From assembly GCF_057098645.1 (NCBI RefSeq), contig NZ_CM169472.1: a stretch of 64,000 bases of DNA; one strand, given 5' to 3'. Positions 53,001 through 56,000 of this stretch are shown here, piece by piece (position 1 is the first letter of the stretch; every line of letters starts with the position of its first letter). Position numbers: made by a program.

Positions 53001-56000
53001 CTTTTTTGTCACCGTCGCCCACAACCAGATCGCTTTCTTCGGTTTCCGTGAAGGTGTCGCCAATCTCACCCGTCAGCCATGAAAGGATGTCCACATCGGA
53101 AAAATCCACGATTTCCTGTGTGGTGCGCGGGTACGCATAGACCGGATACAGCTTGATGCTCACCTCGTTAATCTGCGGGGTGCTGGTCTGTTCGCGTGCC
53201 TTACCCTCTTCACCGTGGTTAACGGTCGCACCGCCAGCGGAAACAAGCTGCTTAAACTCGTTGCTGCTGATTTTCTTCACGGTACAGATGCGGCGCATGG
53301 TGGATTCATCCGCCAGCATTCGCATGATTTCGGTGTTCAGTTCAGGGATAACGGTATAACCACCATCAGCGGGAACGCCTGTACTTAATGCGCGGGTTTC
53401 ACCTGTCAGAATGTAGTTGCGGAGTTCTGCGGGGTCAGTGGTCTGACTGCTTTTACCTGGCTTGCTGCGCTCTTCGTCTGCAATGGCTTCAAGGCGGGAA
53501 ATGTCTTTATCGAGGGATTCAGCTTTAGCGCGTAATTCGTCAAATTTTGCGCCCTCTGCATCGTTAAGGCTGCGGTTTTCTTTTTCCGCGTTCTCCAGCA
53601 TGTCGCGCATCTGATTTTTAATGGCGGTTTTCTGCTGGCGTAATTCGATTATTCTCGGCATAAAAAAAAGTCCTGGGGTTAAGTAAGGAACTCCAGGACG
53701 CGGCAAACACTCAACCGTTTTTCATAAGGAAATCAGTAATCGCACCGATCGTTTTCCCGCCTGGTAATGAATATTGGCGAGCACATTAACAGGCGGGAAA
53801 ATGGCCCCAGCGTCCTGGCACCACGGGCGAGAATAATCATGATTCAGTTCGGGTAAAATATGCCGATCCACTCAGTGAACAACGTGGAACAACCACGAAC
53901 AAATAATTTACAAAACATGACAAAAAGCCGGATTGCTCCGGCTGTGTGATTATCTGTCCTGGTAATTTCGCCATATTTCATCACCAGCACCATCCATACC
54001 CATTTCGGCATAAGTGCGATCGACCGCCTTTTTCAGGTCTCCGTAATTATCCGGCGGCTCCGGTGGCCTCTGTGCCTTCCTGGAACATTCCAGCCGTCGC
54101 ATCGTGATATGATGCCGTTCCTTGTCTGTCTCCACCAGCTGCATGACTTCACCCCATCGCGCCGCCGCCCTCCGGTAAAAGCCTTTCGCCTCCAGTTCCT
54201 CCGCTATGCGGTCATGTACCATCGTCACCCCCTCAGAACGAAATATCATCACCGTAAGGGTCATCGCCTCCCGCTGGTGGCTGATTACCCTGTGTGCCTG
54301 TGGTTTTGCGTCTGTTCCCGCCTGGACGTGCCGCGCGGGCACTGATTACGCTGTCTGCGATAACCTGCCAGCCCTGCCGCGTTTCTCCGTTCTGTCCGGT
54401 CCACTGGCTGACCTGCATCGTGCCGGATACGCTGGCAACATCGCCTTTTTGATGTTTAGCCAGGAAGTCGGCCTGTTTGCCAAATGCGATGACCGATAAC
54501 CATAACGTCGCCTGTCCGTCCTGTGCCTGGCTGCATGGCAAAGATACCGCCATACGCGCCAGCGTCATCGGTGTGCCCTTGCTGGTCTGTTTTACCTGCG
54601 GGTCGTCCACCAGCCGCCCGTAAGCGGCTATCTGTGCCGTCATAATTCCACCTCTCCGGTTTTAACGTTGATGGTTGTTACCTGTTCCGCTTCGGCAATC
54701 TCCCGTTCTGTCAGCGTGGCAAAGTTTGCCGCCGCCGTGGTCATGAATGCGCTTATCAGGTCGGGATGTTCCTTCGCGTATCCTTCCCGCGTGTGGCGGT
54801 CTATCGTTCTGATTGCCACCTTTAAGGTGTGCTCAGTCATGTCTAACGCTTTATATTTTGGCTCTGTTCTGTCTCTGCGTTTTTGGGTCATTTCTCGCAA
54901 CCTCTCACTTTTTCGCCTCACTTTTTCAAGCGTCTCACTTCGTCGCAGTTGGGATTTTCGGTTTTTCTATGTGTGTGTTTCATAAGTATTTTTTTACCCC
55001 TCACTTTTGAGGATGTATACAGGTCGAAAAGTGAGGGAGAGCGGGCTAATTTTGGCCCTCTTTCTATCCCCCTCGCTTTTGCTCCTCACTTTTATAGCGG
55101 CGCTACATCATCCCCATCGATACGAATAACCCCATCTTTTTCCAGCTTGTACAGCCAGCGCCGGAAGTTTTTCATTTCATACCCCAGCTTTTTCATGTCA
55201 TCACGTAACAGCGGGATCGTGCACTTGTCGCCGTTCTGTGTGCGTGAACGGATGCACCCCCATAGCGCGGTATGGTTTTCCGTCTTGTTCCCTGCCTCCT
55301 CGATGCGCTCCAGTTCAACAGGAGGGCGCGGATCATCCACCACCACCAGCGACGTGATTAATTCACCGTCAGCGTCGGTAAAAAGCTCCACCACGCGTAA
55401 GTCATATGCGGCTTCTTTGAGTTCCTCCGCGTCCTTCATTTTGGTGCATGAGATAACCAGCGCTTCGCTTCCTGCGTCCTCCCTGCGTATCCGGTATTCA
55501 GCATCCAGCGAAGCACGAAATGCACTGGAACCGCGCGCGCCTTTCGTCTCATCCTTGCCGGAATGGTGAACCACCAGCACCGTGGCCCCTGTGCGTCGTT
55601 TCAGTTCGTCACAACCACGGATAAACGCCCCCATATCACGGGAATCATTTTCATCATTCCCACCAAAGCAACGCGCCAGCGTATCCAGAATAATCATGCG
55701 TACAGGTTTACCCGTTTCCCGCTCCACCTGACGGGCAGCGATAACCATTTCATCAACATCAAGCGGGGCAGCCGGAAAGATGGGGCGGTTTACCAGATAC
55801 AGATTTTTCACCTGCTCATCGTGCACAACCTCCCAGGCTTTTACACGACGCGGAACACCTATACCGCCTTCACCAACCACATAGAGAACCGCACCATGTG
55901 CAACCCTGCGGCCTCCCCACTGGCGACCAGTGGCAACATGGCACGCCCACGATCCGGCAAGGAATGATTTATAGGACCCGCTAGCCCCGTATATGCTGCA

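Follow-up and report, generated by a model that had tools for sequence, protein, structure and literature searches.

Capsid-forming PICIs (cf-PICIs) are unusual satellites that make and fill their own capsids, which are released tail-less even without a helper phage. How the capsid operon of such an element is switched on is not described in the available cf-PICI literature, which covers genes, capsids and transfer; it describes no capsid promoter, repeat box or leader, and the word 'promoter' occurs 0 times in it. We examined this question at the gap between a perC-family gene and the major capsid protein gene in 64,000 nt of contig NZ_CM169472.1 (assembly GCF_057098645.1), referred to below as the window. 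The features of the locus are collected in Table 1.

Table 1. Features of the perC-capsid gap and of related sites in the window, in the order of minus-strand transcription, with the two distant repeat sites last
Feature	Coordinates	Strand	Basis
perC-family gene, final gene of the upstream (early/accessory) unit	53950..54222	-	PF06069 PerC, E = 1.7e-43; RefSeq annotation, near-identical locus L001
Intrinsic terminator after perC, AGCCGGAGCAATCCGGCT (53943-53926) then TTTTT	53921..53943	-	Terminator scan
Upstream box, TTGTAA then three TTGTTC units; candidate activator-binding array	53877..53913	-	Exact TTGTTC(N4)TTGTTC(N4)TTGTTC
Predicted sigma-70 promoter, -35 TTTACC (53857-53852), 16-nt spacer, -10 TATTCT (53835-53830)	53830..53857	-	Sequence reading
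Leader helix P1, outer stem GUGGU/GCCAU around hairpin CCAG-GACG-CUGG	53801..53824	-	MFE fold; R1 alignment
Leader helix P2, 18-nt arms, 14-nt loop	53752..53801	-	Inverted-repeat search, folding; homologous to type-B P2
Leader helix P3, GTCCTGG/CCAGGAC repeat	53670..53701	-	Inverted-repeat search; folding
U8 tract between P3 and capsid start codon	53662..53669	-	Sequence reading
Major capsid protein gene (HK97 family), packaging operon gene 1	52504..53661	-	Pfam PF05065; L001, L123 annotation
Second array, five TTGT units at exact 10-nt spacing, int-alpA spacer, inverted relative to alpA	63097..63146	+	
Island right-end att arm, TTGTTCCACGTTGTTTCATACAG then GGTGTAGTTAATGGTGTAGT	46445..46497	-	

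From about 46.4 kb to beyond 64 kb, the window carries on its minus strand a cf-PICI of the EcCIEDL933 type, interrupted in this copy by IS21 and IS110 elements. The integrase, AlpA and primase-helicase genes (Phage_integrase, Phage_AlpA and AAA_25 in Pfam) all lie on that strand, and the island has packaging genes of its own, encoding an HK97-type capsid, protease, portal, connectors, HNH, TerS and TerL. Pfam matches within it were obtained for Int, AlpA, SSB, PerC, capsid, HNH, TerS and TerL, with Terminase_4 among the families matched. After the capsid gene, the packaging operon continues with protease, portal, head closure, connector, HNH, TerS and TerL and ends at 47321. No tail genes were found between int and the flanking host genes in the annotation of the near-identical loci L001 and L123, in keeping with an element that has neither tail nor lysis genes. 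EcCIEDL933 (CP-933C) is the experimentally characterised prototype of the capsid-forming PICIs (Alqurainy et al.; bioRxiv 10.1101/2022.09.08.507074), and the window island belongs to the same family and is essentially the same DNA: it shares the gene order (int, alpA, primase, SSB, perC, capsid, protease, portal, connectors, HNH, terS, terL) and the insertion site beside phoQ. Comparison of the intergenic region with O157:H7 chromosomes gave 97-98% identity, at the phoQ-roxA site.

The capsid gene starts at the ATG at 53661 and not at the TTG at 53706, in agreement with the 1158-nt RefSeq CDS and with the invariant M1 of the homologue alignment, and the intergenic region therefore spans ~287 bp (53662-53949). 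In the direction of transcription it contains the perC terminator, four TTGT repeats, a weak predicted sigma-70 promoter and a leader of ~160 nt with the helices P1, P2 and P3. The region is 94-99% identical across 357 E. coli genomes, including O157:H7, and lies every time between early genes and the capsid gene; the gap is the early/late gene boundary of the cf-PICI. Homologous leaders are referred to below as type A and type B. BLAST searches against GenBank phages gave no match for the type-A region and three records for the type-B leader, among which is a 'phage' entry of satellite size (16.5 kb). Open reading frames of 49 aa (53722-53871) and 45 aa (53837-53974) and a 4-codon mini-ORF (53726-53712) within the gap showed no sign of conservation in type B and were regarded as non-coding.

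The gene upstream of the gap, described as PerC-like in the first-pass annotation, is a true member of the PerC family, and the terminator-like hairpin said to follow it is likewise found in the sequence. The terminator scan matched here a G+C-rich stem of 7 pairs (5 G-C) with a 4-nt loop, followed directly by a T-run on the transcribed strand, which folds with -12.6 kcal/mol (z = -4.5 vs. shuffled sequence). An analogous terminator stands at the equivalent place in type-B islands.

About 25 bp past this terminator begins a box that was absent from the earlier reading. Its four units are spaced 11, 10 and 10 nt from start to start and thus have the phasing of Cox/Apl-like sites, that is at least three direct repeats about one helical turn apart; they are predicted to lie at about -90, -79, -69 and -59 relative to the predicted start site. 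The three-unit pattern is expected 0.01 times per window by chance. The box is the only stretch that divergent E. coli cf-PICIs share, its conserved form across genera reads TTTGTAAAT..yGTyC..ATGTTT..TGTTTA, and its distance to P1 is constant (88-90 nt). With a weight matrix of the whole box, each locus gave only one strong match, and this invariably stood before the capsid gene. These phased direct repeats are likely to be the target of an activator. Resemblances seen by eye to an ArcA direct repeat (12/16 matches, spacing differs) and a PhoP box (spacer of 4, not 5), to the lambda CII site TTGC-N6-TTGC, to IHF and H-NS sites and to a sigma-54 -24/-12 element inside P1, were partial or out of register and were set aside. 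A full-text literature search with the motif sequences matched no paper. A looser form of the box pattern gave mostly unrelated matches in IMG/VR, and this search supplied the L318, L319 and L354 leader variants.

Between box and leader, the hexamers of the predicted promoter reach 8/12 matches, below the cut-off of the promoter scan, which explains why the scan missed them. At the aligned position in relatives the scan did report sites, TTTACA-16-TATGTT in L002 and TTTACA-16-TATCTT in L183 (9/12 each); in both loci the scan gave no other promoter-like site within 500 bp, and the site has the correct strand; that of L183 ends ~6 nt before P1. The window promoter is accordingly predicted to be weak and its counterpart in relatives strong, and the late transcript is predicted to start at ~53822-53824. 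In some genera a hairpin and T-run take the place of the -35 region, so this promoter model may not hold everywhere. A promoter within the box, with TAAATT as its -10 element, has no usable -35 and a TG out of register, and was judged less likely than a promoter abutting P1.

Phased TTGT repeats recur at two further places in the island, the int-alpA spacer and the right-end att arm. The att-arm sequence is near-identical to the capsid-box core GTTGTTCCACGTTGTTCAC; in the window, 46475-46497 adjoins GGTGTAGT repeats, and L001 and L123 show the same arrangement at both of their ends. On account of these shared repeats, AlpA, an excisionase-like winged-helix protein, is the most likely candidate for a box-binding activator. 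P2 Cox and phage 186 Apl are excisionases that also regulate transcription, by means of direct-repeat arrays with a period of one helical turn, and Cox also activates the P4 late promoter PLL. The window island resembles these systems in having short direct repeats with 10-11-bp phasing at att arms and at a predicted regulated promoter, and in that AlpA is of an excisionase-like family and an experimentally shown activator (PMC6092414); it differs in the sequence of the repeat. AlpA activates the alpA promoter region in an island whose int, alpA and rep genes are reported to be identical, and helper phages trigger the PICI cycle via activation of alpA (PMC6092414). The repeat link between att arm and capsid box is found in the EDL933-type island and did not generalise: across islands, the box did not co-vary with the int/alpA module, the comparison of the box with the att/alpA regions was significant for the EDL933 type only (within-island mean 9.6 vs. 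8.7 across islands), and L002 and L124 retain the box although their alpA alleles are others. E. coli islands that differ in their alpA allele keep the box too and carry no such array upstream of alpA, and an 8-mer search found no shared box there. The link between AlpA and the box is therefore weak.

The whole 177-nt leader has a minimum free energy (MFE) of -64.5 kcal/mol (z = -4.2) and is more structured than its shuffles, and the three hairpins noted at first pass are all present and far stabler than shuffled sequence. The perfect 12-bp inverted repeat among them (TTTTCCCGCCTG/CAGGCGGGAAAA, 53752-53763 and 53790-53801) forms the core of P2; its spacer is 26 nt, not ~28 nt, and its arms really measure 18 nt (53752-53769 and 53784-53801, 17/18 complementary). 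Folded as minus-strand RNA, P2 reaches -24.0 kcal/mol (z = -6.2), and 0/200 shuffles fold as well. The GTCCTGG/CCAGGAC repeat (53670-53676 and 53693-53699) does lie next to the capsid start, but to the left of and outside the interval to which it had been assigned. It is the core of P3, whose full arms measure 11 nt, contain a single mismatch and enclose a loop of 8 nt (-14.1 kcal/mol, z = -4.4). The 5' arm of P3 falls within segment B (GCGUCCUGG, 53701-53693), which is complementary to segment A (CCAGGACGC, 53818-53810) in P1. The Shine-Dalgarno sequence AGGA lies in the 3' arm of P3 (segment C, 53680-53670), and the U8 tract puts it 9 nt from the capsid AUG. As a stable stem-loop followed by a U-tract, P3 with U8 is terminator-like; the terminator scan passed over it, as the loop on its 7-bp core stem is 16 nt long.

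Homologous leaders stand before genes of this capsid family at more than 100 loci in many Enterobacterales genera. A covariance model, R1, built from 23 type-B leaders matched 96 of 100 related loci with 89-137 bits, each match being followed by MKKLLELRQ or a close variant, and it aligned P1 and P2 in the window (53827-53723, 17.8 bits, E = 4e-5 in a 600-nt search). Compensatory, two-sided changes were observed in 8/9 base pairs of type-B P2; 0/500 shuffles reached the observed covariation, and the signal collapsed in shifted-register controls. In P1, compensatory changes affect three pairs within type B and 3/4 inner pairs between the window and type B. About 40 nt of P1 and P3 sequence are near-invariant across genera, and natural variants of the P3 3' arm (CCCC to CTTC) keep or improve its pairing. 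The sense strand has 20 G-U pairs vs. 3 A-C. That the pairing of P2 is kept despite sequence change and that G-U exceeds A-C both speak for a structure of the transcribed RNA and against a DNA operator, contrary to the earlier view of the hairpins as activator targets. Rfam searches, which covered the region, the window in full and six related loci, gave no relevant match and none at the gathering threshold. P1-P2-P3 is a widely conserved, previously undescribed folded RNA leader before the capsid gene.

Segments A and C are the same heptamer, and either can pair with B. In the window A:B is 9/9 complementary, with a duplex energy of -17.1 kcal/mol. In type B it comprises 8 bp, one of which has changed with compensation from U-A to G-C in the L195/L318/L319/L354 subgroup, and both pairs flanking A:B are compensated between type A and type B; compensation is thus seen in two independent lineages, and the helix is otherwise invariant. 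As P3 and most of A:B are invariant within type B, the support comes from only two or three independent changes. In folding of the growing transcript, A:B was the MFE structure at a length of 135 nt and gave way to P1 + P3 when the 3' arm of P3 had been added, a change that falls between 135 and 150-160 nt; the A:B state lies 7 kcal/mol above the MFE. A:B and P1b + P3 are thus mutually exclusive, the latter hiding the ribosome-binding site, and the co-variation of the 9-bp pairing between P1 and the P3 5' arm across leader types points to attenuator-like logic. The anatomy, conservation, covariation and alternative pairing of the region can be read from the data directly; the start site, the identity of the activator and a use of the alternative pairing for switching are inferred. 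The leader is similar to attenuators and riboswitch expression platforms in its three mutually exclusive pairings (A:A', A:B and B:C), of which B:C contains the Shine-Dalgarno sequence and is followed by the U-tract. It differs from them in that neither a leader peptide nor a ligand pocket or trans-factor was identified for it, in matching no Rfam family and in the absence of the U-tract from the homologous type-B leaders. T7 or T8 follows P3 in all type-A copies, whereas type-B leaders have P3 and no U-tract; the P3 + U8 combination is not conserved among homologous leaders, and termination therefore cannot be the conserved function.

We consider it probable, with some reserve, that the locus is the early/late junction of an EcCIEDL933-type cf-PICI composed of a terminator, a box, a promoter helped by a protein (AlpA being the likeliest) and a switch-like P1-P2-P3 leader. 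Transcription of the upstream unit would stop at the perC terminator, and the weak promoter TTTACC-16-TATTCT would need help from a box-bound protein, most likely the AlpA of the island. The late transcript would start at ~53823 with a leader of three helices, in which P1 would occupy the extreme 5' end, P2 would form a long hairpin of variable sequence, and P3 would bury the capsid Shine-Dalgarno sequence and, with the U8 of this E. coli lineage, resemble an intrinsic terminator. Segments A and C (CCAGGAC) would compete for segment B: in the closed state, P1 + P3, the ribosome-binding site would be hidden and termination possible, and the open state would be formed by A:B pairing. From the earlier proposal of a regulated late-operon boundary, the boundary between the upstream unit and the late packaging operon, the terminator and a promoter-like site are retained, and the hairpins as activator targets are not. 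A further suggestion is tentative, and we think it less likely than not: the leader may represent a new family of cis-regulatory RNA switches for the cf-PICI capsid gene, in which a signal toggles between A:B and B:C and sets the number of tail-less capsids with or without a helper. Such a signal might come from an excess of capsid or scaffold protein, from AlpA, or from a factor encoded by the island or the helper that recognises the near-invariant P1 hairpin.

Other explanations of the locus place its function in DNA. The first-pass annotation saw in the inverted repeats possible operators through which the adjacent PerC-like protein or a helper-phage late activator would switch on the late operon. 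This would fit the position of perC directly upstream, the role of PerC-family proteins as transcription regulators (PMC11773190) and the start of the PICI cycle by helper phages through alpA (PMC6092414). However, 48/48 relatives from other genera have no PerC homologue and yet keep box and leader. So does L124, an E. coli island from which perC is absent, and in the EDL933 type a further gene separates perC from the region; PerC is hence rejected as a general regulator. A helper late activator is rejected as a requirement on published data, since packaged cf-PICI capsids are reported in non-lysogenic cells and form without a helper phage (10.1101/2025.02.11.637232); for the EcCIEDL933 capsid preparation of that study, an alpA-overexpressing strain was combined with mitomycin C phage induction. 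With the RNA-like pattern of P2 added, the operator explanation is largely refuted as a general mechanism, and we regard it as very improbable. It is harder still to believe that the locus is a packaging (cos/pac) or replication (ori) site rather than an expression element. The phased direct repeats do resemble iterons or small-terminase binding sites, and the same repeats also occur near the island ends, but the matrix of the full box gave a single strong match in each locus, before the capsid gene, and the signal for structure is specific to one strand. The cos site of HK97-type systems is found between HNH and terS. The PICI ori, in turn, is located just 3' of the primase gene (PMC6092414).

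Two further explanations accept a leader RNA and give it another role. It could be a passive stabiliser or processing element, with P1 guarding an abundant capsid mRNA (against 5'-end-dependent decay), P2 serving as an RNase III site and P3 merely lying in the ribosome-binding region. P1 indeed begins at the predicted +1, P2 is long and variable in sequence with conserved pairing, like RNase III sites, and the MFE structure already has P1, P2 and P3 with no apparent ligand-like pocket. Left unexplained are the fact that P1b, segment B and P3 all three covary, the near-invariance of the ~40 nt of P1 and P3 across genera, and the buried Shine-Dalgarno sequence, which makes a passive role doubtful. 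Alternatively, as at lambda PR'/6S, a constitutive promoter would give a short leader RNA ending at P3 + U8, and a processive antiterminator (protein or RNA) would be needed for the capsid gene. The order of a predicted late promoter, a short structured leader and a terminator-like end directly before the late genes is indeed like PR'-6S RNA-tR'; P3 and the U8 directly behind it agree with the usual features of intrinsic terminators, the extremely conserved 5' hairpin P1 could be a recognition or loading element, and the operon is long (~6.5 kb). Against this stand the restriction of the U-tract to type A, so that the terminator is not conserved, the lack of any Rfam match for the leader, and the function of cf-PICIs without a helper phage (10.1101/2025.02.11.637232). 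In the annotated islands we noticed no gene resembling Q or N, and unlike in the lambda Q system, no Q-like protein or Q-binding/pause element was identified in the cf-PICI. Antitermination of this kind appears unlikely to us, and the junction with a protein-helped promoter and a switch-like leader is the reading we prefer.

For the cf-PICIs, the conserved repeat box and the predicted promoter indicate where an activator of the capsid operon should bind, and PerC and helper late activators are removed as likely regulators. The leader, conserved at more than 100 Enterobacterales loci and absent from Rfam, has alternative pairings that could set capsid output. If it acts as a switch, it would offer a handle on the spontaneous production of tail-less capsids, and engineered PICI delivery particles would gain a compact module for regulation.

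The gap between perC and the major capsid gene is best read, in the direction of minus-strand transcription, as a terminator followed by an activator box, a promoter and a conserved, structured leader that could plausibly act as a switch. The first-pass annotation had suggested a regulated late-operon boundary, possibly the target of a helper-phage or island-encoded activator such as the PerC-like protein; the boundary was right in outline, but the players named and the role given to the hairpins were unsupported. Its perfect 12-bp inverted repeat (helix P2 of the leader) extends to 18-nt arms, complementary at 17 of 18 positions around a 14-nt loop, and folds as minus-strand RNA with -24.0 kcal/mol (z = -6.2 vs. 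dinucleotide shuffles, as for the values that follow). The terminator-like hairpin after perC was recovered as well, and T5 follows it (-12.6 kcal/mol, z = -4.5). The GTCCTGG/CCAGGAC repeat (helix P3) exists, with 11-nt arms and an 8-nt loop (-14.1 kcal/mol, z = -4.4), but lies to the left of where it had been placed, and the true capsid start is the ATG at 53661 instead of the TTG at 53706. On the plus strand GTCCTGG is found at 53670, 53812 and 53956, at intervals of 142 and 144 nt. Two of these copies correspond to leader segments A and C, and the remaining one sits within the final codons of perC.

The perC-capsid region is found with 94-99% identity across 357 complete E. coli genomes, O157:H7 among them. 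In O157:H7 it belongs to EcCIEDL933 (CP-933C), the island near phoQ that serves as prototype of the capsid-forming PICIs (cf-PICI; 10.1101/2022.09.08.507074); GenBank phages gave zero matches to it. In the window's copy an IS21 element (IstA/IstB) adjoins and shortens the primase gene (466 aa vs. 584 aa in the near-identical island L001) and an IS110-family transposase element lies among the early genes; the copy is probably defective. The element itself is already known. Neither the literature nor Rfam, as far as could be searched, describes the regulatory region or the leader RNA: no Rfam family matched the leader, and the motif sequences were absent from papers in a full-text search. Elsewhere in the window, Rfam matched an ALIL pseudoknot (120 bits), a frameshift element of the IS3 family, and the C0299 sRNA (112 bits).

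Coordinates of island features and Rfam matches in the window
Feature	Position	Strand	Remark
Integrase gene (int)	63189 to beyond 64000	minus	
Five TTGT units	63097-63146	plus	TTGTTC, TTGTTC, TTGTTG, TTGTTG, TTGTAT; exact 10-nt spacing, int-alpA spacer
AlpA gene	62626-62814	minus	
IS110-family transposase element	60130-61326		
IS21 element	56615-59033		
Primase-helicase gene	55092-56492	minus	
SSB gene		minus	between primase-helicase and PerC genes
PerC gene	53950-54222	minus	
perC terminator hairpin	53943-53926	minus	
P1 + P2 aligned by model R1	53827-53723	minus	
Segment A	53818-53810		
P2, 12-bp repeat	53752-53763 and 53790-53801		
Mini-ORF	53712-53726	minus	
Segment B	53701-53693		
P3, 7-bp repeat	53670-53676 and 53693-53699		
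Major capsid gene	53661-52504	minus	
Prohead protease, portal, head closure, connector, HNH, TerS, TerL genes		minus	after major capsid, in this order
Right-end att arm, just past phoQ	46445-46497	minus	TTGTTCCACGTTGTTTCATACAG, then two GGTGTAGT repeats
TTGT units of right att arm	46475-46497		
ALIL pseudoknot	18854-18970	plus	
C0299 sRNA	15435-15513	minus	

After the perC terminator comes the box, GTTTTGTAAATTATTTGTTCGTGGTTGTTCCACGTTGTTC, in which a TTGTAA unit and three TTGTTC units follow one another at start-to-start distances of 11, 10 and 10 nt; the exact triple TTGTTC pattern has a chance expectation of 0.01 per window. It is the sole part of the gap that is shared with divergent E. coli cf-PICIs. 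The predicted promoter (TTTACC, 16 nt, TATTCT) has 8 of 12 matches, under the cut-off of the scan tool. At the aligned position of two divergent islands we found TTTACA-16-TATGTT (L002) and TTTACA-16-TATCTT (L183), each the sole promoter-like site reported by the tool in 500 bp and on the correct strand; the L183 site ends ~6 nt ahead of the first leader helix. The leader of ~160 nt (MFE -64.5 kcal/mol, z = -4.2) contains P1, with outer GUGGU/GCCAU around an inner hairpin CCAG-GACG-CUGG, then P2, a small hairpin and P3, whose 3′ arm bears the Shine-Dalgarno AGGA and is followed by U8 and AUG. It also holds a mini-ORF of four codons (AUG AAA AAC GGU UGA) without a preceding Shine-Dalgarno sequence, and in the MFE structure the U8 tract is base-paired with its AUGAAAAA.

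Capsid homologues of 67-74% identity were aligned, and scanning one genome per species gave 80 loci, spanning Proteus, Xenorhabdus, Photorhabdus, Citrobacter, Serratia, Erwinia, Pantoea, Kosakonia, Pectobacterium, Hafnia, Gilliamella and others. By pattern search, a related box stands upstream of the capsid gene in about 50 of 81 loci; its cross-genus consensus is TTTGTAAAT, then yGTyC, ATGTTT and TGTTTA, i.e., TGT units every ~10.5 nt. Many loci and a second E. coli type have a leader referred to here as type B (GUGGCACUCAGACGUGAGCCGCCAC, a long hairpin of variable sequence, GGUUUCACGUCU...ACGGAAACC, AUG), type A being that of the window and EcCIEDL933-type islands. Box and P1 are a constant 88-90 nt apart in both types, which are collinear from box to ATG in a plain alignment. 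At least 120 IMG/VR contigs, most of them satellite-sized, contain the exact type-B P1 core. A covariance model made from 23 type-B leaders (R1) gave one match per locus in 96 of 100 loci (89-137 bits), and every match stopped at the start codon of a capsid gene whose protein opens with MKKLLELRQ or a close variant; without speed filters, R1 also aligned the window's own P1 and P2, scoring 17.8 bits (E = 4e-5, 600 nt searched).

Other leaders precede the same capsid family. Type C (Xenorhabdus L145, L149, L152, L197, L204) has different sequences, with a 5′ segment, ACAUGUAGG, whose complement again lies in segments around the final hairpin; there is also a short type D (L129, L151 and others), and the Orbales (Frischella, Gilliamella: L171, L177, L178, L200) have unrelated leaders that R1 missed. 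In L176, L187, L174 and Xenorhabdus loci a terminator-like hairpin and T-run replaces the TTTACA -35 region between box and -10, which puts the terminator of the upstream unit between box and promoter, not before the box.

Among 74 distinct type-B leaders, standard pairing accounts for 97% of pair cells, and P2 has two-sided changes, of several pair types, in eight of its nine pairs. This covariation, from an alignment fitted to the model and so biased toward the structure, was reached by none of 500 shuffles and collapsed when the partner was slid by 1-3 columns; a model-free first run (MAFFT/RNAalifold) gave the same helices. Three pairs of P1 covary, and types B and A differ at both positions in three of the four inner pairs of P1 (CUCA/UGAG vs. 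CCAG/CUGG). On the sense strand there are 20 G-U pairs vs. 3 A-C mismatches. A protein operator, as first proposed for the hairpins, would conserve sequence, whereas P2 varies with its pairing kept; judged by these comparisons, the pattern is that of a transcribed RNA structure.

As for the factor acting on the box, PerC, the adjacent candidate of the first-pass annotation, is excluded in a general role: an E. coli island without perC still has the box, and no homologue is encoded by the 48 loci examined in other genera. In 38 of these 48, AlpA is encoded on the same strand, 4.5-7.3 kb further upstream. A helper-phage late activator, the other regulator put forward, is not required; packaged tail-less cf-PICI capsids were reported in a non-lysogenic strain; EcCIEDL933 capsids were prepared from an alpA-overexpressing strain with mitomycin C phage induction (10.1101/2025.02.11.637232). 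Beyond the box, TTGT units occur in three further places of the EcCIEDL933-type island. These are the int-alpA array, 40-90 nt past the integrase stop, ~280 nt upstream of alpA and inverted relative to it; the right att arm, where they adjoin the GGTGTAGT repeats, probably integrase arm-type sites; and the left arm upstream of int (L001 and the likewise near-identical L123), with the same motif pair. Such a repeat arrangement is known for the dual-function excisionases P2 Cox and 186 Apl, and the likeness to it of the units at box, att arms and int-alpA spacer makes AlpA, by analogy, the preferred candidate for box activator. Comparison within and across islands was positive for the EDL933 type only, and the AlpA-box link does not extend to islands at large; where alpA is a different allele, the same box is retained and there is no such TTGT array upstream of alpA. 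The box may instead be acted on by some other protein of the island or by a conserved factor of the host.

Related repeats were seen elsewhere. The fis-integrating islands (L187, L189, L128, L142) have TGTTT/TGCTT units directly beside the attL core TTAGTTCATGCCGTA, phased by one helical turn and resembling the 3′ half of the capsid box, and a conserved CTGTATATTGTTCCAGTGCTT motif upstream of int. TTGTTCC(N3) arrays with 10-nt spacing, often adjoining inverted GGAACAA, occur in many unrelated IMG/VR viral contigs (L008, L010, L019, L021, L037, L053, L066, L069, L085) and may represent a widespread class of phage/satellite protein binding site. Start codons of alpA are also preceded by Shine-Dalgarno-burying hairpins (L002, ~11518-11570, minus strand; many loci of L125-L204), e.g., CCCUCAC...GUGAGGG, then GUAAC and AUG; that of L002 copies the P3 design (CGUCCUCG...CGAGGACG, then U8, AUG).

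Within the leader, segment A (CCAGGACGC; 5′ arm, loop and first 3′-arm base of the inner P1 hairpin) is complementary at 9 of 9 positions to segment B (GCGUCCUGG), with a duplex energy of -17.1 kcal/mol in the window. Since B spans the P3 5′ arm, A and segment C of the P3 3′ arm are the same heptamer, CCAGGAC, and rivals for B. The type-B counterpart, AGACGUGA with UCACGUCU, is invariant in 73 of the 74 distinct sequences; the exception has a compensated U-A to G-C change in A:B that co-varies with the inner P1 pair, and three more members of its subgroup carry the identical three-way change. Both pairs flanking the GACG:CGUC core of A:B are compensated between types A and B. In folding of the growing transcript A:B is best at 135 nt, and P1 + P3 wins once the P3 3′ arm is made; forcing A:B in the full leader costs 7 kcal/mol relative to the MFE. 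The layout is that of an attenuator, and a switch is plausible. As the U-tract is present in type A only, hiding of the ribosome-binding site would be the likelier conserved output of such a switch, and termination a lineage-specific addition.
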